From NCBI GenBank assembly GCA_949284685.1, contig CASDWE010000001.1:17216-81215 (forward strand): a stretch of 64,000 nucleotides of DNA, given 5' to 3'. Positions 7,664-57,590 of the stretch are shown here, piece by piece. Position 1 is the first letter of the stretch, and each line of letters begins with the position of its first letter. The notes beneath the pieces are model-generated. The model saw only the letters and a list, made by a program, of their open reading frames with translations. It was not told the origin of the DNA and did not search any database. The translations under genes were made by a program, and so were the position numbers. Source of the DNA: an uncultured bacterium (GTDB taxonomy: Bacteria; Bacillota_I; Bacilli_A; RFN20; CAG-826).

Positions 7664-8681
7664 AATTATTTTTTAAAAATAGTTTTTTGAAAAATTGAAA
7701 AACTTTGTATATAAAAAAGGAAAAAATAGGTGATATAAAAGATATAGTAAAAACAACTAACGAATAAATATAATCAGCAAACTCAAATTGCTTAAAATCA
7801 ATAAAGATATCAAAAGAATGCAAAATAAAATCAATCAAATAGCCAATACTAAAACCGACTAAAAAACAACAAATATCAATTAAAACAATGTAAATTTCGT
7901 GTTTTTTTAAAAAATCATGTTTTTTTAAAAAAGCAAAATTTGAATATAAAATATAGAAATTTAAAAATAAAAACAATAAGGAAATGATTAATAAAAAAGA
8001 GCCAATTAAAGCGTTATCATTTCGAATAAAATGAATACATGGAAAACTACACACACCAAGAAAAATCGAAAATAATACATAAAAAATAAAGTTAGAATAT
8101 ATATTTTTGATTATAAATTTAAAAGTCATTCCATTTTTTAAATTAGTATTTTTGATATTTTTTTCATCGACAATTTCAGATTCTTTTTTTGCAAATGTTT
8201 TATCTAAAACAACAACATTCAAACTCGAATTGCAATGACTAATTATTTGCTCAAAAAAATCAAAATTATTTCCATAATTTAAATCTATTGTTATATAAAG
8301 AACGTTGTTTTGCACTAATAAATTAATAATATCATGGAATTTTTCATTTAAAACTTTATCGATTTTTTTTATTTTTAACAAATTTTTTTTAAGTTTAGTT
8401 ATTTTGTTGTTATTTAATTTTAATTCCAAATCAAAAAAAGCATCTAAACTAACACCATTAAAATTGATTTTTAAATCGTAAAGACAATTTTCCTTATCTG
8501 CATAAATATTCAATGACTTATCGTCAATTAAAATTTGTCCATCGACTATCCCATTATTTTTAAAATTTAAAATATTAAAGAAAATTTTGTCTTCCTTTTT
8601 AATATTAATGACATTAGATTCAAATTTTTTATTGAATACATTATCAATGCCTGCTAGTTTTAAATTTTTGATTTCAATCAT
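7635..8681 (-). CDS. Hypothetical membrane protein with an N-terminal soluble domain and a C-terminal polytopic domain
   Basis: 348 aa. The N-terminal ~190 aa are hydrophilic with weak resemblance to an ABC-ATPase N-terminus but no Walker A. The C-terminal half has about 4 hydrophobic helices. Confidence 0.4.
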   Translation of the reverse strand: MIEIKNLKLAGIDNVFNKKFESNVINIKKEDKIFFNILNFKNNGIVDGQILIDDKSLNIYADKENCLYDLKINFNGVSLDAFFDLELKLNNNKITKLKKNLLKIKKIDKVLNEKFHDIINLLVQNNVLYITIDLNYGNNFDFFEQIISHCNSSLNVVVLDKTFAKKESEIVDEKNIKNTNLKNGMTFKFIIKNIYSNFIFYVLFSIFLGVCSFPCIHFIRNDNALIGSFLLIISLLFLFLNFYILYSNFAFLKKHDFLKKHEIYIVLIDICCFLVGFSIGYLIDFILHSFDIFIDFKQFEFADYIYSLVVFTISFISPIFSFFIYKVFQFFKKLFLKNNFDNGGRIDE

Positions 8682-12618: not shown

Positions 12619-15228
12619 TTAATTTCCTTTCTTTGGAATTTGCATGGTAATACAATGAATATTACCACCACCTATTAATATATTAACAGTTTTTATAGGA
12701 ATTATTGTTTTATTAGGAAAAATATTTTTAAATTGTTTTACAACTAATTCATCCTGTTTAACATCAAATTGTGGAAGAACAACAAAATCCTTACCTTGAT
12801 AAAAATTAATGTAACTTCCTTGCAAAATTTCATTAAATAAGCGAGGTTTTGCATTGTATTTATCTTTTTTTATGGCATTTGCTTGCTTTTTAGAAATGCG
12901 AATTTTGCTTGGCAATTTGACCTTAATTATGTTGTATGGATTACCATCAATATCCCTAGCGTTACTTAAAATCTTATATGCTTTTTGACAAACTAAATAT
13001 TGTTTTTTGTCGTTAGCGTTAGCCCACGCTAATAAGATAGTATGTTGATCTTTAAAAGCTATAAAATTATCAATATGCTCATCTGTTTCATCATTTAATA
13101 TACCATGTGGTAACCAAATTATTTGTGAAACATTTAAATTTATTTTTAAAATTTCTTCGATTTCGTTTTTGTTGAATTGAGGATTTCTACCTTTTGATAA
13201 CAAGCATGTTTCTGTCACAAACAAAGTTTTATTCCCATCATATGCGATAGAACCACCTTCTAAAACAAAATTATTAATGTAATAAGAATCGATGTTTAAT
13301 TTTTTTGACAAAACCTTGCCGAGATTATCATCATCTTGATAGTTGGAATATAGACCATTATATTCTCCGCCCCAAGCATTAAAACGGAAATCAACACTTC
13401 TAATTTGCCCTTGAGAATTTTTTAAGAAAATTAACGTATTATCTCTAGCCCAAGCATCATTATATTTTATTTTTAAAACACTAACACTAGTAAAATTCTT
13501 CACTAACGGCAAATATTTATTATAAACACTAGGGTCGATGCCAACGTAAACATGTTCATATTTAGAAATGCTTTTTATTACATTTAAAAATTCTTTTAAA
13601 GCATCTTTCCCTTTATTTGTCCAAACATCTTTACGATAAGGTAATAAAATAATACACCCATCATGTTCATCGCCTTCAAACGGTAAATAAAACTCATCAC
13701 CGCGAGGGGTCGTTTTTCTTTTAACAACATAATCCTGTAATTTTTTTTGATAATATGGAAATCTCTTCCATTTATTTTCATCTATAATATCAACTTGATA
13801 CCCATCATTATGATTTGATAATAATCGACATCCTTTTTTTGAACCATCTTTAATTTGATTAATGATATCCTTTGTAAAAACTTCACCAGGCAAAATTATA
13901 GGTATTCCTGGAGGGTAAATCATAATTGATTCCTTGCATATATGATTAAGTGCATTATCAAGTGAAACAGTTTGTGTTGGCGCAAAATAAGCTGTACGTG
14001 GCCTAGTTATCATATAACCATATTCAAAATTAAAATTATGAACCGGATAACTTAAATTTTTATGGAAATGGCGTTTTGATATATCTTTTAATGCTTTAAC
14101 CAAATTATCGATATGAGTTTTAGTGTTTCCTAATGCTAAAATACATAAAATAACATATGTCTCAGCAAGTTCTATTTGAATATGATAATCATTTTTTAAT
14201 AATCGATATACTTCATAACCATTTAAGTCTAAACGATCTAATTCAATTAAAAGTTTTGTCTTATCATAATTGAAACATCCGCGTGATTTAAAATAATCTT
14301 TACCACGCACTATAAAACCATCAATTTGATTAATTTTCTCAAAAGCATATTCGCTTAATTTAATTATGTTTTCAACAGATTCAGGACCATTTTCTTCCAT
14401 CCACGCTCGTGCAGCGTCTAAACTAGCAAGCAATAATGATGATGGGGACGTGGTGTTTAGTAAATTGAGTGTTTCTCTTATTTTGATATTATTAACCTTG
14501 TTTCCTTTGGTAAGCAATACGCTAGATTGCGTTAAACTGCCTCCGGTTTTATGAAATGAAACAGCGCTTATATCAGCGTTTGCTTCCATCGCATTAATAG
14601 GATTAGAATCACTAAAATAATAATGTGCACCATGAGCTTCATCAACAATGACTAACATGTTATGTTCATGAGCCATTTCAACAAGTTTTTTTAAATCCAA
14701 AATTACTCCAAAATAAGTTGGATTTATAACCACTACCGCTTTTGCACTTGGATAACGTATCATCGCCTTTTTATAATCTTGCAATGTTGGTTGATTTGCT
14801 ATTTCAATGTTTGCATCAATATCAGGATTAATATAAATTGGTATAGCACCACTTAAAACAAGAGAATTTGTAATAGATTTATGGACATTTCTTGGCAATA
14901 TGATTTTATCATTTGGACGGCAAATACTCAAAATAGCAGCTTGCAAACCACTAGTAGTTCCATTAATAAGAAAAAAAGAATTATCTGCGTGGCAAGCTTT
15001 TGCCATTAACTCTTCGCTTTGTAAAATAACGCCATCAGGATGTGCTAAATTATCTAAACCAACTGGTGCATTTACATCACATTTATATACTATTTGACCC
15101 ACTAAATCGGTCATTTTATTTTTAATATTTCCCATATGATGACCAGGTACATCAAAAGGAGAAATACCTTCGTTTACATAATTTTTAAGTGCGTCTACAA
15201 ATGGCGTCTCCGCCTTAACTTTTCCCAT
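12619..15228 (-). CDS. Bifunctional fusion of a PLP-dependent Orn/Lys/Arg-decarboxylase-family arginine decarboxylase (N-terminal) with agmatine deiminase (C-terminal)
   Basis: 869 aa. Residues 1 to ~495 show an OKR decarboxylase major domain with the PLP-lysine motif SFHKTGGS. From ~498 onward (TPRGDEFYLPFEGDEHDGCIILLPYRKDVWTNKGKDA...) the sequence aligns to an agmatine deiminase N-terminus and continues as a PAD_porph-type deiminase. The stop lies 3 nt before the aguB start. Confidence 0.75.
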   Translation of the reverse strand: MGKVKAETPFVDALKNYVNEGISPFDVPGHHMGNIKNKMTDLVGQIVYKCDVNAPVGLDNLAHPDGVILQSEELMAKACHADNSFFLINGTTSGLQAAILSICRPNDKIILPRNVHKSITNSLVLSGAIPIYINPDIDANIEIANQPTLQDYKKAMIRYPSAKAVVVINPTYFGVILDLKKLVEMAHEHNMLVIVDEAHGAHYYFSDSNPINAMEANADISAVSFHKTGGSLTQSSVLLTKGNKVNNIKIRETLNLLNTTSPSSLLLASLDAARAWMEENGPESVENIIKLSEYAFEKINQIDGFIVRGKDYFKSRGCFNYDKTKLLIELDRLDLNGYEVYRLLKNDYHIQIELAETYVILCILALGNTKTHIDNLVKALKDISKRHFHKNLSYPVHNFNFEYGYMITRPRTAYFAPTQTVSLDNALNHICKESIMIYPPGIPIILPGEVFTKDIINQIKDGSKKGCRLLSNHNDGYQVDIIDENKWKRFPYYQKKLQDYVVKRKTTPRGDEFYLPFEGDEHDGCIILLPYRKDVWTNKGKDALKEFLNVIKSISKYEHVYVGIDPSVYNKYLPLVKNFTSVSVLKIKYNDAWARDNTLIFLKNSQGQIRSVDFRFNAWGGEYNGLYSNYQDDDNLGKVLSKKLNIDSYYINNFVLEGGSIAYDGNKTLFVTETCLLSKGRNPQFNKNEIEEILKINLNVSQIIWLPHGILNDETDEHIDNFIAFKDQHTILLAWANANDKKQYLVCQKAYKILSNARDIDGNPYNIIKVKLPSKIRISKKQANAIKKDKYNAKPRLFNEILQGSYINFYQGKDFVVLPQFDVKQDELVVKQFKNIFPNKTIIPIKTVNILIGGGNIHCITMQIPKKGN

Positions 15229-15272
15229 GCTTTAAATTATAATAATAATTTATGCATATACAAGAAAATTTT

Positions 15273-15296
15273 AAAAGCGTGGTCGCCCACGCTTTT
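15273..15296. terminator. GC-stem hairpin (aaaagcgtggtcgcccacgctttt). It is a likely rho-independent terminator for the convergent minus-strand lipoprotein gene and insulates the downstream speA/aguA promoter.
   Basis: An 8-bp perfect stem (gcgtggtc/gaccacgc-type) is flanked by A/T runs on both strands. Confidence 0.55.
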
Positions 15297-15331
15297 AGAA
15301 AAGAGAAACAATAATGTTAATTTTAACTTTA

Positions 15332-16531
15332 TTATCCAACATATGCTGTCCAGTTACCAGGAACAACATTATCAGGATTATTATCATACCAAGATGCAGT
15401 GCTATTAACAATTGAATACATATTCATGCCAGAAGGAATATCTGCCAAACTTAAATCAGCCGTTCTAGCATTCCAATCTGCTAAAATACCATTATTATAT
15501 CCAGCACGCACGAACTGAATATTAGTGTATAAACTAACATCTAATCTAATACCCCAGAAATTATGACTTGTATCTGAATCATAGCGCAAATGAGTCATAA
15601 CAACACCTGGCCAAGCACCATTTATAACATCATTTGGTCCATAAGCATAAATTGAGGTTGATACATTATAGCCTTGCCACCAAGAAGCATCTTCAAAATA
15701 TAAAACAAGATATTCTGGAGCAACATTGCCAGATCTAACTGCTAAAGCATTAATTAATTCACCTAATGTCGTTTGAAGAGGTTTTTCTCCAACAGTTTCG
15801 CCTGCATCAACAACGGTATCCATATCAATATCACCAAGATTTTGGCTGATAAAGATTTTTTCTAATTGTTTCCAAGCACCATAACCATTATGGACATTTG
15901 GTGAACAAGAATCGATAAATTCATGTGATAAAACATGAGCAAGTTGTTCGCTAGTTAATGCTGGAACATAACCAAAATTAATATTACGAACAGCTGTTTC
16001 ATCTTCGCCTTTTTCAATCCAAAGTGCGTTATATTCGCTGTCCGTTCCTAAAAATGTTTTTGCGGTTTGTTTTGCGTTATAGCCATCCTGCCATTCACCA
16101 GCAAAATTTTTGATTTGAATATAATTATATTCATTTTTCAAATCGAAATAGTAAAGACCATAGCCATATCCATCATCACGGCTTCCATCGCTACTGCGAC
16201 CAATTAAATGCATTTTTGGAGCATCATTATAGCCACCTTCAATTGTGCTAATTGGTTCATCGTCAAGATTATCATTTTCCTCGGCATAAATCCAAAGGTT
16301 TCCATCCACTGAATCATGAGACCATGTTTCGTCATTTAAGACGACATAAATTCTCTTTAAACCAGTTTCTTCAACTACCCCACGATGATTATCGTCTGGT
16401 AAAAGAGAGGTTTTGGGCGTAAACGAGCATGCTGCTGCAACTATACCGACGATAGCAACACCGCATACCGCACCAAAAATCGCTAATTTCTTTTTCATAT
16501 GCAATTTTCCTAAACGTTTGATTAAAATCAA
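15332..16531 (-). CDS. Lipoprotein of unknown function with atypical composition
   Basis: Lipoprotein signal KKKLAIFGAVCGVAIVGIVAAAC. Start is either TTG 16531, which lies 4 nt after an AGGAG, or ATG 16498. The protein is rich in Gly/Ala/Asp/Trp/Tyr, unlike its Lys/Ile/Asn-rich neighbours. Confidence 0.5.
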   Translation of the reverse strand: MILIKRLGKLHMKKKLAIFGAVCGVAIVGIVAAACSFTPKTSLLPDDNHRGVVEETGLKRIYVVLNDETWSHDSVDGNLWIYAEENDNLDDEPISTIEGGYNDAPKMHLIGRSSDGSRDDGYGYGLYYFDLKNEYNYIQIKNFAGEWQDGYNAKQTAKTFLGTDSEYNALWIEKGEDETAVRNINFGYVPALTSEQLAHVLSHEFIDSCSPNVHNGYGAWKQLEKIFISQNLGDIDMDTVVDAGETVGEKPLQTTLGELINALAVRSGNVAPEYLVLYFEDASWWQGYNVSTSIYAYGPNDVINGAWPGVVMTHLRYDSDTSHNFWGIRLDVSLYTNIQFVRAGYNNGILADWNARTADLSLADIPSGMNMYSIVNSTASWYDNNPDNVVPGNWTAYVG

Positions 16532-45823: not shown

Positions 45824-46699
45824 TTATTTGTACAATTTCTTTGAAATAGTAACCGCTAAAGCGCCAGGACCAATATGGGTAGCTATTGAATATGATAATG
45901 GATTCATTTCAATATCTTCTTCATTAATATTTAACTTATTCGCTACTTCATGTTTAAACATTGAGGCGGCTTGCTCATCATATGTGTATGCAATTGCATA
46001 CACTAATTCATCATCTTTTAAATCTTTAAATTTAGTTTTTCGATCATTAATAACAGCGTCAATCATGACACTTTTGGCTTTTTTTGTTCCTAAGACTTTT
46101 TTATAAGCATCTAATTTCCCACCTAAAATTGTTAAAACTGGTTTTAGATGAAGAGCTTCACCTAGTGCTGCAGCAGCAGGAGTTACTCTTCCCCCTCTTT
46201 TTAAATATTTTAAGGTGTTGACCATAATATAAATAGATGAATTAAAAGATTCTTCTTCTAATATACTTTTTATTTTATTTCCATCATAACCTTGTTTTGC
46301 TAAATACATCGCATCACGAACTGCACTTTTTAAAGTAACACTGATACGATGATTATCAACAACAAATACTTTATTTTTAAATTGGTCATCTTTTGCAAGA
46401 CCTTCTGCAGTCATGCATCCTTCTGATAAACTACTAGACATTGGAATATGAACAATTTGATCATATTCTTTTAATAGTTTCTCCCACATATTCATTATTT
46501 CACCAGGAGAGGGTTGACTAGTTTTAACATTTTCAGTAGTCGCTAACTTATTATAAAATTCATCTTCAGTGATGGTATAATTTTGAAAATAATCTTTATC
46601 ATCAATGACGATTGGCATTCTAACAACAGATAAATTTAATTGTTTTATTTCATCTAAGGTAAATCCTGCATTTTGATCAGTAATTACACAAATCTTCAT
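45824..46699 (-). CDS. DegV-family fatty-acid-binding protein (FakB)
   Basis: 291-aa DegV domain (MKICVITDQNAGFTLDE...). Confidence 0.8.
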   Translation of the reverse strand: MKICVITDQNAGFTLDEIKQLNLSVVRMPIVIDDKDYFQNYTITEDEFYNKLATTENVKTSQPSPGEIMNMWEKLLKEYDQIVHIPMSSSLSEGCMTAEGLAKDDQFKNKVFVVDNHRISVTLKSAVRDAMYLAKQGYDGNKIKSILEEESFNSSIYIMVNTLKYLKRGGRVTPAAAALGEALHLKPVLTILGGKLDAYKKVLGTKKAKSVMIDAVINDRKTKFKDLKDDELVYAIAYTYDEQAASMFKHEVANKLNINEEDIEMNPLSYSIATHIGPGALAVTISKKLYK

Positions 46700-46867: not shown

Positions 46868-47501
46868 GTATTAGTGCTGATAAGAATTACATTACTCTCA
46901 AACGATAGACATCCAATTCAGCAAGTAGCCTTTTCGTATTAGTGCTGATAAGAATTACATTACTCTCAAACTTGAAGAGGCTAAAGATTTTGTAGAAAAT
47001 AGTATTAGTGCTGATAAGAATTACATTACTCTCAAACAATAATCAAGTAGAACAAGGTGATATTATTGTATTAGTGCTGATAAGAATTACATTACTCTCA
47101 AACAAAAGTTCTGAAGAGGTATTAAAGTAAACAGTATTAGTGCTGATAAGAATTACATTACTCTCAAACATATAATCCATTAATATATCCGACTTGGATG
47201 TATTAGTGCTGATAAGAATTACATTACTCTCAAACACCTATCTTTATGCTGTCTTGAAATAAGGGGTATTAGTGCTGATAAGAATTACATTACTCTCAAA
47301 CTAGTTGGTGAATATGGTGGCACGACCTTTCGGTATTAGTGCTGATAAGAATTACATTACTCTCAAACAATTTAAGGAGTAAAAAAAATGGAATTAGTTG
47401 TATTAGTGCTGATAAGAATTACATTACTCTCAAACACCTATCTTTATGCTGTCTTGAAATAAGGGGTATTAGTGCTGATAAGAATTACATTACTCTCAAA
47501 C
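46868..47501 (-). CRISPR. CRISPR array of 10 identical 36-bp repeats and 9 spacers (30-32 bp), transcribed on the minus strand from the csn2-side leader
   Basis: Plus-strand repeat GTATTAGTGCTGATAAGAATTACATTACTCTCAAAC, with repeat starts at 46868, 46936, 47002, 47068, 47134, 47200, 47266, 47333, 47400 and 47466. The minus-strand reading GTTTGAGAGTAATGTAATTCTTATCAGCACTAATAC has the type II-A GTTT(T/G)AGAG 5' signature. Confidence 0.95.
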
Positions 47502-47638
47502 CTCAAAAAAAATCCATGTTTTTAGACTATTTTTTCAGTACGAAAGCCAGAAATTCTTATTTTTTAACACAAAAAAATGTTTGAAAGATTTACATTACAA
47601 AATTATTATAACAAAATTTAAACAAAATAAATAAATAT
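47502..47638 (-). promoter_or_regulatory. CRISPR leader. It is AT-rich and contains one or two degenerate repeat-like elements.
   Basis: 137 bp between the csn2 stop and the first full repeat. GAAAGATTTACATTAC at ~47578-47600 matches the repeat core GATAAGAATTACATTAC. Confidence 0.6.
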
Positions 47639-48292
47639 TTATGTCAATTGACATAAATCTTCGTCAATAATTATGTTTTTATCAATACTTTGTTTACTAT
47701 TTCCTAAATTTATAACGCTTAAATGTAAAAAACTTAATTCTGTTTTTAATTTTTCAATCTCTTGTTCGTTTAAATAATCAAACAAATTAAGTGTAAAAAT
47801 TAGATTTATTTTCCCAAATTCTTTAACTATCTTAATATATGTTAAGAAGTTTTCTAAAAAATTATCTTCGTTTTCGTAATATTCTAAGTCTATTGATGAA
47901 AATAACGTTTTAAAATCCAATAAACTTTCGTATTGCAATTTTATATTAGAATTAATTGATAAATCTAGCATTAATTGCCCCACTAATTCGTTAATTTCAG
48001 CTAACTTTTGTCTATATTCATCATTTATATTTTCTTTTTCAATTTGTGAATATAAATTGCTAATTTGTTTTTTATTATTAATTTGAAGATTAAGAACATT
48101 TTCAATAAAAACGATGTGTTTTGAAAAATCTAGTAAATTTTTTTCATATAAAAACATAAAGTCTTCGTCTAAATGTCTTAATGACAAAATAAATTTATAT
48201 AAATACGAAGGATTTAATATTTGAATATTATAAATCTCCCCGTTTCCAATTATAAATTCATAGTCAACATTTTTAATTTTTAAAGTCATCAT
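47639..48292 (-). CDS. csn2: Csn2 (short form), the type II-A signature adaptation protein
   Basis: 217 aa located directly downstream of cas2. N-terminal MTLKIKNVDYEFIIGNGEIYNIQILNPSY resembles short Csn2. Confidence 0.8.
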   Translation of the reverse strand: MMTLKIKNVDYEFIIGNGEIYNIQILNPSYLYKFILSLRHLDEDFMFLYEKNLLDFSKHIVFIENVLNLQINNKKQISNLYSQIEKENINDEYRQKLAEINELVGQLMLDLSINSNIKLQYESLLDFKTLFSSIDLEYYENEDNFLENFLTYIKIVKEFGKINLIFTLNLFDYLNEQEIEKLKTELSFLHLSVINLGNSKQSIDKNIIIDEDLCQLT

Positions 48293-48615
48293 AATTCAAT
48301 ATTTCTCTCGTCACTATTAATTACTTCTGTATTTATTTCTCCTAATATAATATTGATATCTCCAAATTGTTTTTCAGTAATGGTTAAAACCGCAACAGAT
48401 CCTTCTTTTGGAGAGATTTTTTTAACTTTTTCAATTGTGGAATTTGCAATTCTTTGATCTAAACATAATTTTAGATAAACAGATTTTTGAAACATATAAA
48501 ACCCAAGACTTTTTATATCTTTTACAAATTTAGAATAATTACGTCTTTGCACTTTTTTCTCAACTGGCAAATCAAAAAATAATAATAATCTCATATATCT
48601 ATAATTCATAATCAA
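48289..48615 (-). CDS. cas2: Cas2
   Basis: 108 aa (MRLLLFFDLPVEKKVQRRNYSKFVKDIKSLGFYMFQKSVY). It overlaps cas1 by 17 nt and csn2 by 4 nt. Confidence 0.85.
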   Translation of the reverse strand: MIMNYRYMRLLLFFDLPVEKKVQRRNYSKFVKDIKSLGFYMFQKSVYLKLCLDQRIANSTIEKVKKISPKEGSVAVLTITEKQFGDINIILGEINTEVINSDERNIEL

Positions 48616-49462
48616 TAAATTCTACATTATCAGTATTACTTCTCAGCTGAAGTAATAGATTTTTAACATAAGAATGAATAGCGTTTTCTAAATACATTTC
48701 ATTTCCTAAATAAGTAACTTTTCTATTTAACATATTAATAAATTCTTTTTTAAAATTATCGTTGTTAACTCGATTAGAAATAACATAACTATCCACTAAA
48801 GGACGCAATGGTTCAATAAAATCGCAAGAAAGATTAACCGGATTTGTTTCGCCTATATGATGAATACCAATTTCTAAAAGATATCCAAATGATTTAATTT
48901 CCCTACTAATAGCACTTAAAATAATAGAATAGCCATAATCCAAATATTTATTTATATCGTCTTCAAGATTTCTAGAAAATCTTGTTCCAAATAGTGAATT
49001 AAAATAAACTTTAGCCGCATGACCTTCCCTATTTGTGACATCATCATTTAAAACGTCATTTGAATAATCTAATAATTTAACATATGAATCTTCGTTAATA
49101 TTTTTAAGGTTTCTAGCTTGATTAGTAATTTTTTTGATAATAATTTTTCTCCAAATTTTACCTTTAATCTCGCTATTCCAATTGATTTGGATTTGAATTT
49201 TTTTATATGTATCACCGGTGCCATATATAGGCAACAATTGACTTTGTGGAGTATATTTGTGATCACAAAATATTACCATAATATTTTTGTTCATCAACGC
49301 AGACAATAAAGATGCAGTTAAAGCAATTTCTGTAGAAGCGATAATCAAAACAGATATTTCATCAAGCAATATTTTTGTCTCGTTTTCGCCTCTGCAAACT
49401 AAATAATTTAAAGAGTGTTCTAATTTACAACGAGATTTAATAGTTACAACTCTAAATCCCAC
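48599..49462 (-). CDS. cas1: Cas1 (type II)
   Basis: 287-aa Cas1 located 5 nt downstream of cas9. Confidence 0.85.
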   Translation of the reverse strand: MGFRVVTIKSRCKLEHSLNYLVCRGENETKILLDEISVLIIASTEIALTASLLSALMNKNIMVIFCDHKYTPQSQLLPIYGTGDTYKKIQIQINWNSEIKGKIWRKIIIKKITNQARNLKNINEDSYVKLLDYSNDVLNDDVTNREGHAAKVYFNSLFGTRFSRNLEDDINKYLDYGYSIILSAISREIKSFGYLLEIGIHHIGETNPVNLSCDFIEPLRPLVDSYVISNRVNNDNFKKEFINMLNRKVTYLGNEMYLENAIHSYVKNLLLQLRSNTDNVEFIDYEL

Positions 49463-49467
49463 TAAAA

Positions 49468-52400
49468 TTATTCACCTTTCCAAAGAACTTTCTTATAAAA
49501 ACCCGTGACAGATTCTGTGATTATTTGGCATTTGTTATCGGTTGGGTATGATGATGATATTGTTAATACACCAGATTTTTCTTTTCCGTTTATAAGTTTT
49601 AAGTTAGATGATAGTCTATCACATGTAAATAAATGATTTGCTTCATGATTTAGGCATATTAATTCTAAAACACTTAATTTATTTAAAATATTATTAATTT
49701 CTTCTGATTCCAAAAAAATTCTAATATTTTGTAAATTTGAAAAATCAAAATATATTTTTGATGAGATGGCTTTTTTATAAATATTAAACAATTGCATTTC
49801 TTTATTTTTATCTAAATTTTCTTCTTTGTTTTTGTCTCCTCTAGCTTTTGAAACAATATAATTATTTTCATATTTTTCGATATCTTCTGCTTTAAATTTA
49901 TAATCTTTAGTAATTATTTTTTTATCAATTAACTGGCTATATGCTTTTTCATTCAATTTAATTAATTTAAGTTCATCATACGAATAATTATGCTGCATTA
50001 AATTTTTAACTAAAAATTGTGAGTTAGTTACGCCAGTAATGCAGAATTTAGAATTGTTAATCGTGATAACTGTATTCACTTTTAAATTTTTGATAAGCAC
50101 ATTTATATCTAATAATTTTGAATTTTCAGATAAATATTTTTTATATTTTTCATCTGGTAATTGTCCATACATTGTTGGCATAGGAACAATCATGATTTTC
50201 TTATTACCTTTTTTATCTAAACCGGAAATCAAAGAATAAAAACCATATTGTAAACTAGAATATCCACCATATTTTTTGATGTCTAATCCTTTTTTCAATG
50301 GTAAGGCACCTTCTTTAATTTCTAATTTAGGAGTTATAGAATCTTTTGAAAATATTGTGTTATTGATATAGGTTCTAGTTGTCACCATAATATCAAATCG
50401 TGTATATAAATTCTTCTTTATTTGCTCAACTGTTTTGTTATATCCATAGATAAGCTTGCCATTTAGCGAATAAAATGGTTTTTTATTATTGTTTTCATCT
50501 TCAAAAATCTTTTCTGGATTTGTGGTTTTCTTTTGCTGTTTTAGTCTTTCAATCCATCCGATTATATGACCTTTGTTGAACCATTCATATATAGTTCTTC
50601 CGATAATAATATTAAGATACGCGTCGTGAGCGTGATGATAATCGTTTGCATCTCTACATTTAACCAAGTCAAATTTTTGGCGATAAGAAGATACATGATT
50701 AGCTTTTGAAAATACTATTGTTGGTTTTTCTTTAAATTCTTCTAATAAATCTTTTAGTGCTTTAGCACTTTGATTTGTTGACACTAATTGACGATTGACA
50801 AAATCTTGTAGTTCTTCATCGCTTAATTCTTCTTTTCGCGTTAATCGATTAAATTTTTTCTCACTAATAAGTTTGTTCTCTTTTAAAAATTTAAAATAGT
50901 CATGTGGATTATAGTCTTTTCTTCTATTTGGATAATTATATGGATAATTTTCGCCTTTATTTCTATTTTCGGTTGATAATACCAATACTCTATTGTCTAG
51001 AGAATCATCTTTTACTTTTGATTGAGGATATATGTGATCAATATCATACATTGTTCCATTTAAAACGCCTTCAAAGTCAAGTTGTTCACCGGTATATAAG
51101 CATCTTCCTAATTGAGTAAAATATAAATAAATTCTATCGCTTCTGAATGCAGATTTATCATTTTCATATTTATTTAATTTTTCCTCTAGTTTTTCAAAAT
51201 TGATATCTTTATCAAATTTGTTTTGTTTTTTTGCTTCTTCAATAAATTTTTTAGCAGCAGCGTATCTAGAATCATCAGTTTTCTTTTTGCCATCAACGTT
51301 TCCTCTAGCGCATTCAATAAAGAAATTGTTGATTGGTTGTTTGACTATTTTTTCTAATTCTAAAATAATCTTAAAACTTTGGATTAAAGATCTTTTCATC
51401 ATTGGTGACACATAGCTCTCGTCAATAGCCTTTTTAATTGATTCCATATTATATTCACGAACACCAATAACATTATTTCTGTATTCTCTTAAACGATCTT
51501 GGTAGTGATATTTTTCTAAAAACAAGATTTCTTGTAATATAAGATTCTCGTTTTCCATAATTTTTATAATAGAAGTATCAATCACTTCCCCGTTTTCATC
51601 ACAAGGTTTAAATTCTAAAAGAAATTTTTGAGAAAGCCTTCCCCAATTTTTATAAGTTAATTTGCATATTTTCTTAATTTTATCTTCGTCTATAATCTTG
51701 CTATACTTTTTCTCTAAACGTTTTTTTAAAATCGCCTTGTCTTCAAAAATTGTAATATCAAAAATTATATCTTCAATTGTATCAATATGTTTTTTAACAA
51801 AATCTTCACCAAAAATATTAATAAAATCGACCATTGAAGAAAATGATGCCACTAATTCAGCTTTTTCTTTATCATTTGACGTAGTTATTTCAACACAATT
51901 TTCACCATTTTTCTTTTTAAACCAGTCTTTTAAATCGTTTATCGTCACTTTTGAGTGATGGTAATAAACTTCTTCAATTAAAGATAATTTGTCTTCTTTT
52001 GAAATGTGATTTCCGTTAACATTTAATTTATTTAGTTCTGTTAAGACTTCATATCTGCTATATAAAATAGATTTCTTGGGCAAGCAATAACAATCTGGCA
52101 AATATGTGCACTTATTTTGCATTCTATTAATAAATATTTTTGCACTTTCATCTATGTCTACTACCTTATTAAAGTTCCATGGCGTAACTTTCTCGTTTGT
52201 TATTTTTTTAACCCAGGAAAATTTTTTCTTATTTTCATCACTGCCAGCATACAAAGGTCCGACATAATAAGGAACTCTAAACGTTAAAAGTGAAACTATT
52301 TTATCTAATACTGAGCCATCTTCATCCTTATCGTTTAAGAATGAATAATATTTCTTTTGGTTATTTAAAATTTTCTCTAACATTGCTTTATTTAACTGCA

Positions 52401-53718
52401 CGGGAAAATTATTTTCAGCAGAATTTTGACGTTCTAAATAACTTTTGTCTTCAATATTAGAAAAAATCTCTCTTAAAGTCTCGTCTTGAATATCTTCGGC
52501 TTTTTTAATATTTTTAAGTCCTAAAGTTTCTTTTAAAAATTTATAAAAATCATCCCTTGAACAATGACTTGTGGATATTTTTTTGCCATTGCATAGACAT
52601 GTTCCGATATATTTAGTGTAATTGTTGATATCAACTTTCTTTCCGCTATTATCTTTTGTATATGGCAAGCCAAATATTTTTTTCTTTAATTCAGGATGCA
52701 ATATACAATAATCTTTTAATTGACGTAATTGTTTTTTATGTTTTTCAAATTTTTCAATGTAAACCTCATATAGATATTGTTTTCCTTTTAAATTTTTATT
52801 TAAACGAATTAAGTCATATACCCCTTTTGCCAAAATTATTGCATTGAATATATCGATAAAATTTGGATATTCATTTTTTAATGATAATATGTCTTCATCA
52901 AAAGTTTGGCTTGTTATATCTAATTTAACTTTTTCTTCTGCTTTTATTTCTCCTTTAACAAGACTTTCTATTGATGAGCCTGACATTGTTTTAATTATTA
53001 TTTTAACTAACCCGGATGGTTTTTCATCGTCTAATAAAATTTGTATTAATTTCTCTTCGGTATCTTTTTTGCCTTTCACATCATTTAATTTTTCAAAAAA
53101 ATTGTCTAATACTCTAGATTCGTCATTTAATTTTTGAACATCATCTTTATCTTTGCTGTAATTGTCTAGAATATCATTAAGGCTATAAATTAAGTTTTTT
53201 AGATTTGAGCTATCAGATAATTCAAAATCTCCTTCGTATAAAAAGTGTCCGCGGTATTTAATCAAAAAAGAACAAGCTAAATATAATTTTCTTATGTCTG
53301 TTTTTTTATCTTCTTCAATTAATTCTTTGATTAAATGATATATGGTTTTATATTCATGAAAATAATCTTTGTCAGAATAATTAATATCATTAAAGAGAGT
53401 GTATGAATTTTTTAATTGTTTATCATCTATTGTCAATCTAGAATCATCAAGTCTTTGAAAGAAATTTTTATCAACCTTACATATTTCATTTGCAAACAAT
53501 TCTTGAAGTAAAGATAATCTAAATTTTCTTCTTTGTAATCTTCTTCTGTTCGTTCTATGAAGGCGCCTTTCCTCTGCGGTGCTTGCTTCTTCAAAAAGTC
53601 TAACACCCCACAAAGACTTGCCTTGTTTTTTTACAATATTATAATCTTCGTCAGTTAATGCCCAACCAACAGAATTTGTCCCAATATCTAAACCTAATAA
53701 ATAATTTTTCTTTTCCAT
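49468..53718 (-). CDS. cas9: Cas9 (type II-A), 1416 aa, catalytically intact
   Basis: RuvC-I LGLDIGTNSVGWAL, arginine-rich bridge helix RRLHRTNRRRLQRRKFR, HNH DIDHIYPQSKVKDDSLDNRVLV and RuvC-III HHAHDAYL. Confidence 0.95.
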   Translation of the reverse strand: MEKKNYLLGLDIGTNSVGWALTDEDYNIVKKQGKSLWGVRLFEEASTAEERRLHRTNRRRLQRRKFRLSLLQELFANEICKVDKNFFQRLDDSRLTIDDKQLKNSYTLFNDINYSDKDYFHEYKTIYHLIKELIEEDKKTDIRKLYLACSFLIKYRGHFLYEGDFELSDSSNLKNLIYSLNDILDNYSKDKDDVQKLNDESRVLDNFFEKLNDVKGKKDTEEKLIQILLDDEKPSGLVKIIIKTMSGSSIESLVKGEIKAEEKVKLDITSQTFDEDILSLKNEYPNFIDIFNAIILAKGVYDLIRLNKNLKGKQYLYEVYIEKFEKHKKQLRQLKDYCILHPELKKKIFGLPYTKDNSGKKVDINNYTKYIGTCLCNGKKISTSHCSRDDFYKFLKETLGLKNIKKAEDIQDETLREIFSNIEDKSYLERQNSAENNFPVQLNKAMLEKILNNQKKYYSFLNDKDEDGSVLDKIVSLLTFRVPYYVGPLYAGSDENKKKFSWVKKITNEKVTPWNFNKVVDIDESAKIFINRMQNKCTYLPDCYCLPKKSILYSRYEVLTELNKLNVNGNHISKEDKLSLIEEVYYHHSKVTINDLKDWFKKKNGENCVEITTSNDKEKAELVASFSSMVDFINIFGEDFVKKHIDTIEDIIFDITIFEDKAILKKRLEKKYSKIIDEDKIKKICKLTYKNWGRLSQKFLLEFKPCDENGEVIDTSIIKIMENENLILQEILFLEKYHYQDRLREYRNNVIGVREYNMESIKKAIDESYVSPMMKRSLIQSFKIILELEKIVKQPINNFFIECARGNVDGKKKTDDSRYAAAKKFIEEAKKQNKFDKDINFEKLEEKLNKYENDKSAFRSDRIYLYFTQLGRCLYTGEQLDFEGVLNGTMYDIDHIYPQSKVKDDSLDNRVLVLSTENRNKGENYPYNYPNRRKDYNPHDYFKFLKENKLISEKKFNRLTRKEELSDEELQDFVNRQLVSTNQSAKALKDLLEEFKEKPTIVFSKANHVSSYRQKFDLVKCRDANDYHHAHDAYLNIIIGRTIYEWFNKGHIIGWIERLKQQKKTTNPEKIFEDENNNKKPFYSLNGKLIYGYNKTVEQIKKNLYTRFDIMVTTRTYINNTIFSKDSITPKLEIKEGALPLKKGLDIKKYGGYSSLQYGFYSLISGLDKKGNKKIMIVPMPTMYGQLPDEKYKKYLSENSKLLDINVLIKNLKVNTVITINNSKFCITGVTNSQFLVKNLMQHNYSYDELKLIKLNEKAYSQLIDKKIITKDYKFKAEDIEKYENNYIVSKARGDKNKEENLDKNKEMQLFNIYKKAISSKIYFDFSNLQNIRIFLESEEINNILNKLSVLELICLNHEANHLFTCDRLSSNLKLINGKEKSGVLTISSSYPTDNKCQIITESVTGFYKKVLWKGE

Positions 53719-53738
53719 GTTGCATTTTTCTCCTAGAT

Positions 53739-53843
53739 GTATTAAATTAATTACATAAGAATTACATTACAAGTTCAAATAAAATTCATTCGAATCATAA
53801 ACTTGATTGCAAGTTAATTAACATCCGACGGGATGTTTTTTTT
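53739..53843 (+). ncRNA. tracrRNA. It is divergent from cas9, with an anti-repeat, two internal hairpins and an intrinsic terminator.
   Basis: 53755-53770 ATAAGAATTACATTAC equals repeat positions 13-28. CAAAT at 53776-53780 pairs with the crRNA 5' GUUUG (lower stem). GTATTA at 53739-53744 equals repeat positions 1-6. Hairpins are AACTTG-attg-CAAGTT and CATCC-gacg-GGATG, and the latter is followed by T8 at 53836-53843. Confidence 0.7.
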
Positions 53844-53938
53844 CTATAATTCTTATTATTTAAATTATACTATACAAAATACACTACAAAAATAACATTA
53901 TTATCGTTTTTCCTAATGTCCGTTTTTTAGTGCATCGT

Positions 53939-54562
53939 CTAATAAACCGCATTAACACTGCTTATTGCACATATCATTGAAAAGAAAAATAATATTAGGC
54001 AAATAAAGAAAAGACAATAATAGATAATATTGCATGTAAGTTGTGCTTTATTCTTATTTTTATCTTTAAAATATAAAATATTAAATAATCCTAATCCAAT
54101 ACAAATAATACTTATTATCAAAAATATAATCGGCAGCGGGTTTCCACTACTTAGGCATGCCATCATGATACTAGCGACATAATAAAATTTATCAGGAGTT
54201 TGTTGTCCAGGAGGAATTGGATAAACATATTCAAAAGCCACTATTAAAGGAATAAACGTTAATATAACAGCACAAATTAATATGCTTATAGAAATAACAT
54301 GTAAAATAAAATGAATATTTTGTTTTTTTGAATTATGTTTTAATACCACGTCAAGAGTGTCTTCATTTGAAAACAATTCATCGATTGAAACATTTAAACA
54401 ATTAGCCAATTTTTCTAAATTTTCTTTTGTTGGGATAGCAACACCATTTTCATATTTATTAATTAATGTTCGCGATACAAAAATCATGTCAGCGAGCTTT
54501 TGTTGAGATAAATTGTTTTTAAGACGTAGTTGTTTTAATTTGTTTGGAAAATTCATAATCAT
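53939..54562 (-). CDS. Membrane-tethered XRE-family (HTH_3) transcriptional regulator
   Basis: 207 aa with an N-terminal Cro/C1-type HTH (LKQLRLKNNLSQQKLADMIFVSRTLINKYENG) and 4-5 C-terminal TM helices. Confidence 0.65.
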   Translation of the reverse strand: MIMNFPNKLKQLRLKNNLSQQKLADMIFVSRTLINKYENGVAIPTKENLEKLANCLNVSIDELFSNEDTLDVVLKHNSKKQNIHFILHVISISILICAVILTFIPLIVAFEYVYPIPPGQQTPDKFYYVASIMMACLSSGNPLPIIFLIISIICIGLGLFNILYFKDKNKNKAQLTCNIIYYCLFFICLILFFFSMICAISSVNAVY

Positions 54563-54633: not shown

Positions 54634-56856
54634 TTATATCATGACATATGTCAAATCATTATAATCAAACGTATATTTTCCATCATCGTTTAAAGTAAAT
54701 GTTATGTAATGAATAATCTTATCATAATCTGGTGTTTGTTCTAAATAATAAAAGCTATAAGTGTGACTTGTGTCGTCTAGTGAGTATGGGAACAAACGAT
54801 GATAAGTAATGCTTGATGCTGTTTCAGTTACTTTTTTATAAAATCCAATATAGCCATCAAGTCTAACATATGCTGGAAGATTATTTGAAGAAATATATTC
54901 ACCAACAAAATCAAATCCAGCAAAGAATCGATTATTTTCTTGATACATTTTTTCATCATAAATCATGTATGCACCATTGCATTTAATGTATTTAGTGCCA
55001 GCATTTTCAAATTGAACTTTGATGATGTAATAATTATTATCTATATCATAATCGACAAAACTAGCAAAACCAACATCGACACGTTCATAATTTAAATAAT
55101 GTTCTAAATAACGCGTTTCTTGATAATCAATCGTTGGTCGATCAGCTTCCCAACTACCAGTAAGATTTAAATAATCGTCGATAGTGCCAAAATTGCCATA
55201 TAGATCACTTAAATAGAAATGATAAATATTTGCCTTTATTGTCATATCGCTAACAACAGGTGATGTATTATCATAACCAATAAAATCAAATCTTAGCACT
55301 TCATTTCTTAAAATAAAGTATGGCTTTAATGTTTCTCCTTTATTAACAACATAATAAAAGCGTGAATTATCATCTTCGATTTTAATAAAAGCCTCTTTAT
55401 CATTCATTTTTTGATATTTAATTTCATATGGGACAGTTTCACCAAAACTAGAAACAACAACTAAAGCTTCTTCATCAATTAAATATTTATATTTTTCAAA
55501 GCTAGTTATGCCAATTAGATTGATGTTTCCATCATTATCATAATAAGCATCATATAAACTTCCACTTGTTAAAGTAGAAAGATATATTTTATTGTCAGAA
55601 ATTCTAACTTTTACTTCTTTATTTTCATCATAATATACACCATCAACAATATCAGATACATCGATTGGTGTTTTAATTCCAACATACAGTGTTGTATCTT
55701 TATTAAATTTCGTATCTTCAGTTAAAGGATACATCTTATTAATATCTAGATATACTTCAACATATAAAGCGTATAAATAATGATATGTATTTGAATTAAG
55801 ATAACCATCCACTGCGATATAAGTTTCATCATTTTTACCATTTATTGTGATGTAATAATCATTATTATCAATTAAATATAAATCAAAAGAAGGATCGCCT
55901 AATATCATTCCTTCGACATGGAATGATTTAAAAAACGGATCATAAATCATCTTTTGTGTGTGACGATTATCACTTATGACAATATCTCCATCAATAATGT
56001 TCGCACTTAATTGACCATTAAGCAATAATTCTGAATAAATGTTCGTAGCGATATTGTTTTCATCAACGCTGAAAGCGTAAGTGCGAGGAGGATATGTTTG
56101 GTTGGCAAAAATATTATCGACATAATATTCACCTTTTAAAGAAAGTTGTTCCAATTCCACTACTTCAACTTGAAAAGATAAATTAAAATCTAGATTAGAA
56201 TTTAATTCAACATAAACTGGATAAGTTCCAAGTTTAGATGTATCAACATTAGAATAATCTACTGAATATTCACAACTTTTAGCGGCCTTATTTTTACCAT
56301 CTGATAAAACTTTTTCTAAGATAATATCTTTATGATTTGTTAAATCTTCATCTAAATAATATGTTTTACGATAATTCACTAAAACTATGTCTTCAATTGT
56401 TAAATTAACAACATCCACAGTAAAACTAGTTCTGACATCGGGGTTATCTTTTAAATAAATATTTATTGGATATTGCCCTGGAATATTGTTATTAAAAGAT
56501 GATGAATCAATAACATATTCACTACTTTCCGCTTGAGTTTTTTCACCATTGGAAAGATTTTTTTCAATAATAATTCCATCGCTAATAAAAGTCGTATTTT
56601 TTTCATATTCAAGCAATAAGTCTTCTTTATTTGCAATATTAATAGAGACTACTTTGACTTGTGTTAGAAAATAAACACTGATTGGAACTATCACTGCTAT
56701 CATAGACACCGCTACTAGACTAGTAATAAATACATTTTTAAAAGAGAAAATTGATTTTTTTTCTTTTTTAAAATTTATTTTATTTTTAACATCATCAAAT
56801 GAAGATATATTTTCTTTTTGAAAATCTTTTAGAAATTCTTTTTCTATTTTTTTCAT
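54634..56856 (-). CDS. Putative anti-sigma factor / large single-pass membrane protein with an extracellular Ig-like repeat domain
   Basis: 740 aa with a short cytoplasmic N-terminus, one TM (ITSLVAVSMIAVIVPISVYFL) and tandem ~60-aa Ig-like repeats (…GQYPINIYLKDNPDVRTSFTVDVV / …GTYPVYVELNSNLDFNLSFQVEVV). It overlaps the sigma gene by 4 nt. Confidence 0.45.
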   Translation of the reverse strand: MKKIEKEFLKDFQKENISSFDDVKNKINFKKEKKSIFSFKNVFITSLVAVSMIAVIVPISVYFLTQVKVVSINIANKEDLLLEYEKNTTFISDGIIIEKNLSNGEKTQAESSEYVIDSSSFNNNIPGQYPINIYLKDNPDVRTSFTVDVVNLTIEDIVLVNYRKTYYLDEDLTNHKDIILEKVLSDGKNKAAKSCEYSVDYSNVDTSKLGTYPVYVELNSNLDFNLSFQVEVVELEQLSLKGEYYVDNIFANQTYPPRTYAFSVDENNIATNIYSELLLNGQLSANIIDGDIVISDNRHTQKMIYDPFFKSFHVEGMILGDPSFDLYLIDNNDYYITINGKNDETYIAVDGYLNSNTYHYLYALYVEVYLDINKMYPLTEDTKFNKDTTLYVGIKTPIDVSDIVDGVYYDENKEVKVRISDNKIYLSTLTSGSLYDAYYDNDGNINLIGITSFEKYKYLIDEEALVVVSSFGETVPYEIKYQKMNDKEAFIKIEDDNSRFYYVVNKGETLKPYFILRNEVLRFDFIGYDNTSPVVSDMTIKANIYHFYLSDLYGNFGTIDDYLNLTGSWEADRPTIDYQETRYLEHYLNYERVDVGFASFVDYDIDNNYYIIKVQFENAGTKYIKCNGAYMIYDEKMYQENNRFFAGFDFVGEYISSNNLPAYVRLDGYIGFYKKVTETASSITYHRLFPYSLDDTSHTYSFYYLEQTPDYDKIIHYITFTLNDDGKYTFDYNDLTYVMI

Positions 56857-57371
56857 TTTTTCATCTCCTTTTGATATTTTTTTAATGCTCGGTAATATTT
56901 AGTTTTAATAGTCTTAGAATTTGATTTAAATATTTCTGCAATCTTTTTAAAATCATAGCCATAAATCAAATACAATATGATAATTTTAGTATCATCTTCG
57001 CCTAAAATATTTTGCATAGACTTTAATAATTCTTGATAAGCAATACTACCTTTTATTTTGCTATCTTCATCTCCTAAATTGATGAGTTCATCATAATCAA
57101 TCATTTTGCTTTCTTTTTTTATAATGTTAAGAGCAATGTTTTTAACGGTTTTGCAAAGGTAAGATTTGATGTTATCAACGTTTGATAAATTATTAAAAAG
57201 ATTAATAAAAGTTTGTTGAATAACATCATTAATATCTTCTTTGTTAGTTAAATAACTAGACGCTATAAAATAGCAAAGAGGATTATATTGCTCATAGATA
57301 TATTTAAAGGCCTTTTCTTTATCTATGACCATCAATGATTTAAAAAGAAGCAAATCGAAGTCTTTTTTCAT
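56853..57371 (-). CDS. ECF-type sigma-70 factor
   Basis: Region 2 (DVIQQTFINLFNN) and region 4 HTH (GYDFKKIAEIFKSNSKTIKTKYYRALKK). The preferred start is ATG 57371 (MKKDFDLL) with AAAGAGG 8 nt upstream. The track start 57401 is a TTG. Confidence 0.7.
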   Translation of the reverse strand: MKKDFDLLLFKSLMVIDKEKAFKYIYEQYNPLCYFIASSYLTNKEDINDVIQQTFINLFNNLSNVDNIKSYLCKTVKNIALNIIKKESKMIDYDELINLGDEDSKIKGSIAYQELLKSMQNILGEDDTKIIILYLIYGYDFKKIAEIFKSNSKTIKTKYYRALKKYQKEMKK

Positions 57372-57590
57372 AGTTTTTGCCTCTTTCATTATATATGACA
57401 AATTAATATAAGAATTAGTTTCATTATTTTAAAAAAAATATCAATAAATGTATTTGATATAATTTATGATATATTTCAATATTTCTTTATTATCCAATTT
57501 TTATTTTATGTGTTAAGATTTGCTCATCAGCAAATGTCAACATCAATATTGGCAAAATATTAAATGCGTTTTATTATCATCAATAACCAT

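Follow-up and report, generated by a model that had tools for sequence, protein, structure and literature searches.

The forward strand just upstream of cas9 very probably encodes, at 53755–53843, the tracrRNA of a canonical type II-A CRISPR-Cas9 system, with expression and function predicted. Coordinates here and below refer to the window, meaning the whole 64,000-nt stretch of DNA that was analysed. The initial annotation had placed a tracrRNA on this strand, upstream of and divergent from cas9, and this placement is supported by synteny, homology and covariation. As judged from sequence, the element belongs among the tracrRNAs of SpCas9-like architecture and is a routine type II-A component, with every defining feature that can be looked for at this level. 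Its anti-repeat lies outside the array, with a 16-nt exact match and a 6-bp lower stem; it is encoded at the cas9 locus, divergently and starting 36 nt from the cas9 ATG; the predicted transcript is complementary to the crRNA and has an intrinsic terminator at its end; repeat and anti-repeat have evolved together locus by locus; and the modules known from SpCas9 (lower and upper stem with the bulge between them, nexus, 3' hairpins) are all present, the nexus by homology. The parts are as follows.

53755–53843, + strand: predicted primary tracrRNA of about 89 nt, its 5' end taken from promoter geometry and its 3' end from the T8 run
53755–53770, + strand: anti-repeat, upper stem, forming 16 Watson-Crick pairs with crRNA repeat nt 9–24 (GUAAUGUAAUUCUUAU)
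53771–53774, + strand: bulge, tracrRNA side AAGU, facing crRNA G7-A8; AGU is invariant in the family
53775–53780, + strand: lower stem UCAAAU, pairing with crRNA 5' GUUUGA, with a terminal G-U pair; 100% paired across 47 loci
53783–53791, + strand: nexus-equivalent mini-hairpin within AAUUCAUUC, AAU (53783–53785) with AUU (53788–53790), loop UC
53792–53799, + strand: linker GAAUCAUA, with GAAAUCAUA or CAAAUCG as its homologue in relatives (compare GUUAUCA in SpCas9)
53800–53815, + strand: stem-loop 2, AACUUG-AUUG-CAAGUU, with compensatory changes at five of six pairs in close relatives
53820–53843, + strand: intrinsic terminator AACAUCC-GACG-GGAUGUU plus U8, from a terminator scan; stem invariant, loop variable

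The surrounding locus is of type II-A, defined by cas9, cas1, cas2 and csn2 with an adjoining CRISPR array, and all of these are present.

49468–53718, − strand: cas9, 1416 aa, TIGR01865 (E 6e-228)
48599–49462, − strand: cas1, NCBIfam match above cut-off
48289–48615, − strand: cas2, NCBIfam match above cut-off
47639–48292, − strand: csn2, NCBIfam match above cut-off
47502–47638, − strand: CRISPR leader, ending in ...UUUUGAG and abutting the first repeat
46868–47501, − strand: CRISPR array, 10 identical 36-nt repeats

The four proteins match TIGR01865, TIGR03639, TIGR01573 and TIGR01866, respectively, all above the NCBIfam cut-offs, and the order on the minus strand is cas9-cas1-cas2-csn2-array. 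The catalytic RuvC/HNH residues of Cas9 (D11, H895, N918, H1031/D1032) are invariant in the Cas9 alignment. The repeat reads GUUUGAGAGUAAUGUAAUUCUUAUCAGCACUAAUAC in the crRNA sense and GTATTAGTGCTGATAAGAATTACATTACTCTCAAAC on the plus strand. The leader sits between csn2 and the array, with TTTTGAG directly preceding the first repeat, and a TTTGAG|G leader-repeat junction is also found in the related loci L004, L009 and L033; a leader by csn2 with this junction fixes the direction of crRNA transcription, and the same array orientation is supported by the GTTT...AC polarity of the repeat.

Every sequence element named in the initial annotation was found where it had been placed, including the 16-mer ATAAGAATTACATTAC (53755–53770, +), which is indeed identical to positions 13–28 of the plus-strand repeat. 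Together with the lower stem, the anti-repeat spans 22 of the 36 repeat positions. At a tolerance of two mismatches the 16-mer has 11 sites in the window, namely the 10 repeats and 53755–53770 itself, with 0.25 sites expected by chance; allowing three mismatches adds one further site, in the CRISPR leader, against 4.35 expected. A second anti-repeat elsewhere had been named as a finding that would speak against the assignment, and within the window 53755–53770 is the sole copy outside the array. Co-folding with the crRNA-sense repeat, a check proposed at the same time, gives the 16-bp upper stem, the bulge, a lower stem of 6–7 bp and three 3' hairpins.

Duplex energy does not discriminate across the window (29% G+C): the candidate reaches −23.3 kcal/mol and chance sites −22 to −24, the latter being interrupted, G-U-rich pairings at several unrelated places. 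Energy was therefore dropped as evidence, and the case as supported here rests on the exact Watson-Crick match, the position adjoining cas9, the tail and, above all, the comparison of related loci. Rfam (release 15) gave no match in the whole window at gathering thresholds and, at E ≤ 10 over 53600–54000, unrelated weak matches only, none of them a tracrRNA. One of these, to Spy490380c (E 5.3), was dismissed as a product of A/U-rich sequence and a terminator. The lack of a curated match is ascribed to model coverage, and bears on the models rather than on the functional class. Of 12 papers matched in a full-text literature search for AAGTTCAAATAA, none of the 10 listed looked relevant by its title.

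The closest relative of the Cas9 is a 97% identical metagenome protein (P0001), followed by proteins at 55% and about 50% identity. In a collection of species-representative genomes the best match is 55%, to metagenome genomes labelled "uncultured Bacilli", with further matches in Mollicutes, Erysipelotrichaceae, Anaeroplasma and many Clostridia. The window itself is from an uncultured low-G+C gut bacterium, and the loci nearest to it belong to gut metagenome genomes of "Bacilli" and Mollicutes-like kind. Of 81 loci with related Cas9 proteins, 59 have a homologous element ahead of cas9 on the other strand (400 nt upstream searched). These share a motif, N-AGU-N-N-AAAU-N-A (...AGU-N-CAAAU-AA...), followed by hairpins and a T-run. 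In the closest loci, L081 (Cas9 97% identical), L001/L085 (55%), L002/L084 (49%) and L082/L083 (50%), the elements align over their full length. An nhmmer profile built from 49 relatives, with the window and its 97% twin L081 left out, has a single significant match, at 53759–53796 (+) with E 1.1e-5; the next best in 128 kb over both strands is at E 2.

Covariation was assessed in 47 loci: in each, repeat nt 1–24 were joined to the anti-repeat of that locus and pairs were counted. Standard pairs make up 92% of the repeat/anti-repeat cells, compared with 30–42% when the partner is slid by 1–3 columns. Both sides have changed at 16 of the 22 pairs, and at 14 of 16 within the upper stem; none of 500 shuffles reaches the observed covariation score. 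The repeats of L010, L018, L024 and L056 are of the normal GTTTGAGAG type.

The same set of loci alters the boundary between bulge and lower stem. AAGTT (53771–53775) and CAAAT (53776–53780) are present as the initial annotation described, and its pairing of CAAAT with GUUUG, terminal G-U included, holds. The 5-bp stem length does not, nor does the 5-nt bulge of AAGTT against AGA: the stem is 6 bp (UCAAAU:GUUUGA) and the bulge AAGU against GA, with a sixth pair that co-varies. At pair 5, 46 loci have GC and one has AU; at pair 6, 41 have AU, four CG, one GC and one UA. The combinations include GUUUGG/CCAAAU in L001, GUUUAU/AUAAAU in L002, and GUUUGC/GCAAAU in L008, L012, L013 and L077. Given a lower stem that pairs in all 47 loci, with a co-varying sixth pair, the module is read as a GA/AAGU bulge with a UCAAAU stem, as in SpCas9.

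The nexus also changes register. ATTC (53784–53787) with GAAT (53792–53795) had been proposed and is the minimum-free-energy choice, but among six close sequences it is 79% paired, with five broken cells and no compensation, and across the 47 loci it has no covariation, 141 of 500 shuffles doing as well. GAAU (53792–53795) was accordingly rejected as a 3' hairpin arm and belongs to the linker GAAUCAUA, the GAAAUCAUA counterpart of which is found in L016, L047 and L009. In the family as a whole the nexus is a short hairpin directly 3' of AAAUAA, with outer pairs that co-vary (GGAU-UU-AUCC, CGAU-UU-AUCG, CAAU-UU-AUUG, GCU-UUA-AGC, AAGU-UU-ACUC). Its covariation score is 0.255 compared with 0.130 in shuffles (0 of 500 as high), a value diluted by a 1-nt length difference that the MAFFT alignment could not place; the register was settled by the nhmmer alignment and the close-relative set. 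In the window a conserved AA (53781–53782) precedes the mini-hairpin, and its AAU/AUU pairing persists in every close relative, only the loop varying (UC, UA, GU). This supports a predicted nexus placed by homology to the wider family, its pairs being invariant among close relatives.

Downstream, both hairpins of the initial annotation stand. AACTTG-ATTG-CAAGTT (53800–53815) has compensatory changes at five of its six pairs, and its forms among six distinct close sequences include AACUUG/CAAGUU, AGUUUG/CAAACU, UCUUCU/AGAAGA and GGUUGCA/UGUGACC. CATCC-GACG-GGATG (53822–53835) with T8 (53836–53843) is called as a terminator by the scan, on the plus strand only. Its CAUCC/GGAUG stem is invariant in the six close sequences, the loops being GACG, GAUU, GUAU and CUAA, and one compensatory flanking pair, A-U to G-C, extends the stem. 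The tail as a whole folds more stably than its shuffles (z = −2.8), and an intact terminator and compensated tail are kept across Cas9 lineages that are just 49–55% identical.

The 5' end is placed by comparison of promoter regions, where two further features are needed.

53720–53748, + strand: inferred tracrRNA promoter, −35 TTGCAT (53720–53725), 17-nt spacer, −10 TAAATT (53743–53748)
53739–53744, + strand: GTATTA, identical to repeat positions 1–6 and overlapping the inferred promoter

On the plus strand, five distinct lineages have the same order: the complement of the cas9 ATG, one base, TTGnnn, 17 nt, nAnnnT, 6–7 nt and the anti-repeat. The TTGnnn-17 nt-nAnnnT geometry is shared with L001, L085, L002 and L082/83; the −10 hexamers across the five lineages are TAAATT, GAATAT, CAATAT, TATAAT and TAAAAT, and the 17-nt spacer holds the complement of the cas9 Shine-Dalgarno sequence. 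This conserved geometry points to a start near 53755 and an RNA of about 89 nt, both ends being predicted. In a consensus promoter scan the window's weak hexamers, TTGCAT and TAAATT, fell below threshold and were not called.

The same tracrRNA could instead have its functional start further upstream, at or before 53739, where the initial annotation had it begin, or within the 5' coding region of cas9, which is possible and on balance unlikely. The scan does report promoter-like plus-strand sites ahead of the anti-repeat, at 53676–53705 (9/12) and 53618–53645 (10/12), within the cas9 coding region; such sites are, however, no commoner than in shuffled sequence (nine found, 8.0 expected). A longer precursor would also take in GTATTA, and there is a precedent in S. 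pyogenes, where two promoters give tracr-L and tracr-S (PMC11417352). Long forms from the two upstream sites were folded in search of a natural sgRNA of the tracr-L kind, but no fold-back onto the anti-repeat was found in them and their stability is unremarkable (z −1.4 and −0.6). As for GTATTA itself, its sequence and its identity to repeat positions 1–6 were confirmed, but the distal pairing proposed for it in the initial annotation has no counterpart in L001 and L002, the relatives with a known repeat used for this comparison, and 5% of 30-nt windows taken at random from this sequence contain a distal anti-repeat 6-mer of this kind. RNase III processing would presumably strip that part of a longer RNA in any case. 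With the start near 53755 retained as the preferred one, GTATTA probably lies outside the short transcript, as a vestige or a chance match, and should not count toward the functional duplex. It may be a vestige of a longer anti-repeat, because many relatives in the Clostridia pair nearly the whole repeat.

The short, 89-nt tracrRNA of S. pyogenes is likewise part of a type II-A system and likewise encoded upstream of cas9 on the opposite strand; its gene lies about 210 nt from the cas9 ATG, compared with 36 nt here. The SpCas9 scaffold has the same 6-bp lower stem with terminal G-U and the same GA/AAGU bulge followed by AA, then a 9-nt nexus, a linker ending in AUCA, a stem-loop starting with ACUUG, and a terminator hairpin with a U-run. 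When the tracrRNA part of the standard SpCas9 sgRNA scaffold is set against the window, 23 of 36 columns from bulge to linker are identical and the modules correspond one to one. The differences are in the nexus, which is A/U-only in the window (AAUUCAUUC) and GGCUAGUCC in SpCas9, and in the sequence of the upper stem. Compared with solved structures the Cas9 is remote, with the best match to 9jwk (E 1e-162) and SpCas9 chains at about 1e-122 over residues 4–1047.

Another comparison is FrCas9 of Faecalibaculum rodentium, whose tracrRNA is encoded upstream of cas9 and opposite to the cas genes, and was confirmed by small-RNA sequencing and sgRNA activity (PMC8931148). Likened here by repeat class, FrCas9 and the window both have a 36-nt repeat of the GTTTGAG type and a GAGUUCAAAU bulge/lower-stem module; the FrCas9 tracrRNA is 71 nt long, however, and differs in nexus and tail (CAGGCUCCUAGAGAGAUCCG...). 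More broadly, position, strand and module order are the same throughout the clade of Cas9 proteins with GTTTGAGAG repeats (Clostridia/Bacilli metagenome loci L001–L085). Within it, the lineage of the window (with L081, L001/85, L002/84 and L082/83) has a short anti-repeat (16 + 6 bp), a nexus one nucleotide shorter and the conserved CAUCC/GGAUG terminator, whereas many Clostridia relatives have almost the full repeat paired and three 3' hairpins. Finding a tracrRNA by its anti-repeat is standard procedure, and classes of sgRNA modules have been described (Gasiunas et al., 2020; PMC7606464).

The cas9 strand opposite the tracrRNA has features of its own. Just 36 nt lie between the cas9 ATG and the anti-repeat, and they accommodate both the ribosome-binding site and the inferred promoter of the tracrRNA. 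A perfect TATAAT is found on the cas9 strand at 53869–53864 (−), 21 nt past the tracrRNA terminator, and a (T/G)ATAAT hexamer is found past the terminator in every close lineage (L001/L085, L002, L082/L083), preceded by TATG-A in L002 and L082. A search for a cas9 promoter at the locus placed none with confidence, and no terminator was called on the cas9 strand between the upstream HTH gene and cas9 (53844–53938). The −10-like hexamers past the terminator suggest that the cas9 leader probably crosses the tracrRNA region, running antisense through the gene. A more specific arrangement is distinctly doubtful: the tracrRNA gene would be wedged between the cas9 start codon and its promoter, with a leader of about 140 nt fully antisense to it and the two transcripts regulating each other. 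If true, regulation could act via transcriptional interference or through a perfect duplex of about 89 bp being cleaved by RNase III, and would be a Cas9/tracrRNA autoregulation unlike the tracr-L natural-sgRNA mechanism of S. pyogenes.

These features, the short distance to the cas9 ATG and the conserved −10-like hexamer (TATAAT, 53864–53869) beyond the terminator, would also suit a region that is primarily a minus-strand cis element of the cas9 5' leader or promoter, with repeat complementarity secondary. This is very improbable as an account of the region, as the changes retained in it preserve pairing with the locus's own repeat, the plus-strand hairpins and the U-run, neither of which a minus-strand leader needs; nor are the cis-element and tracrRNA roles mutually exclusive. 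It is equally hard to credit a silent relic, in the form of a decayed solitary repeat or anti-repeat with the working tracrRNA elsewhere: an anti-repeat covering just 22 of 36 repeat positions could suggest decay, but there is no other anti-repeat or tracrRNA-like sequence in the window, the cas genes and array are intact, and the 3' tail is kept, with its compensatory changes and terminator, between Cas9 lineages 49–55% identical.

With a working tracrRNA as the preferred reading, the steps by which it would act can be drawn from established type II-A biology. The RNA would be transcribed away from cas9, from a promoter overlapping the cas9 ribosome-binding site and start codon, and would begin near 53755. 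Pre-crRNA would be made from the minus strand, starting in the leader by csn2, and the tracrRNA would pair with each of its repeats. The duplex would be bound by Cas9 and cut by host RNase III, and the mature crRNA:tracrRNA would guide DNA cleavage by Cas9. In this complex Cas9 is expected to read the 6-bp lower stem, GA/AAGU bulge, upper stem, nexus mini-hairpin, linker and two 3' hairpins.

Biologically this is an expected component of a type II-A system, and its value is practical: a guide-RNA scaffold is now given for an uncharacterised 1416-aa Cas9, so that an sgRNA can be built and the enzyme tested. The design rule of 16 nt of repeat, GAAA and anti-repeat applies directly here (PMC7606464), and the predicted layout is N20-22 + GUUUGAGAGUAAUGUAAUUC + GAAA + GAAUUACAUUACAAGUUCAAAUAAAAUUCAUUCGAAUCAUAAACUUGAUUGCAAGUUAAUUAACAUCCGACGGGAUGUUUU. 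If the scaffold is to be truncated or engineered, the corrected boundaries are important: the lower stem of 6 bp, the register of the nexus and the likely 5' end.

Several other observations concern the array and its leader. The leader-proximal and fourth spacers are identical (CCCTTATTTCAAGACAGCATAAAGATAGGT; 47236–47265 and 47436–47465, −), and the 111-nt blocks containing them (47191–47301 and 47391–47501) are 97% identical, which points to either a duplication inside the array or the same spacer having been taken up twice. The leader site found with three mismatches, GTAATGTAAATCTTTC at 47583–47598 (−), is oriented like the repeats, lies about 81 nt ahead of the first one and shares 13 of 16 positions with the repeat core; it may mean nothing, given the 4.35 such matches expected by chance. 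Complements of 11–12 nt to the middle of the locus's own repeat are found within the leaders of L004 (6458–6469), L009 (10753–10764) and L033 (11438–11448), all on the + strand, 45–75 nt ahead of the first repeat. L009 and L033 also carry a normal tracrRNA upstream of cas9; in L004 the tracrRNA motif was looked for upstream of cas9 and not found. About 700 nt past the distal end of the window's array, at 46151–46200 (+), are two repeat pieces, TAGTGCTG and TTACTCT, 13 nt apart, with a −22 kcal/mol duplex with the crRNA repeat; these could be chance or a decayed repeat.

Locus L081, the 97% relative, has its tracrRNA around 7936–7964 (−) and an array at 14217–16199 with 31 repeats, compared with 10 in the window. 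Its tracrRNA differs from that of the window only in the bulge (AAGUU to GCAGUU, one base longer) and in a terminator with one T fewer, and its repeat has one distal change, CAGCAC to CAACAC, at a position unpaired with the tracrRNA. Directly upstream of the window's tracrRNA, on the cas9 strand, is a gene for a 207-aa protein with an XRE/RstR-like HTH N-terminus (53939–54562, −). It is preceded by one for a 740-aa protein with no NCBIfam match (54634–56856, −) and, before that, by an ORF whose L081 counterpart is the sigma-70 region 2/4 protein (56853–57401, −). This HTH / 740-aa / sigma-70-like gene order is absent in L082 and L085 and is shared with L081.
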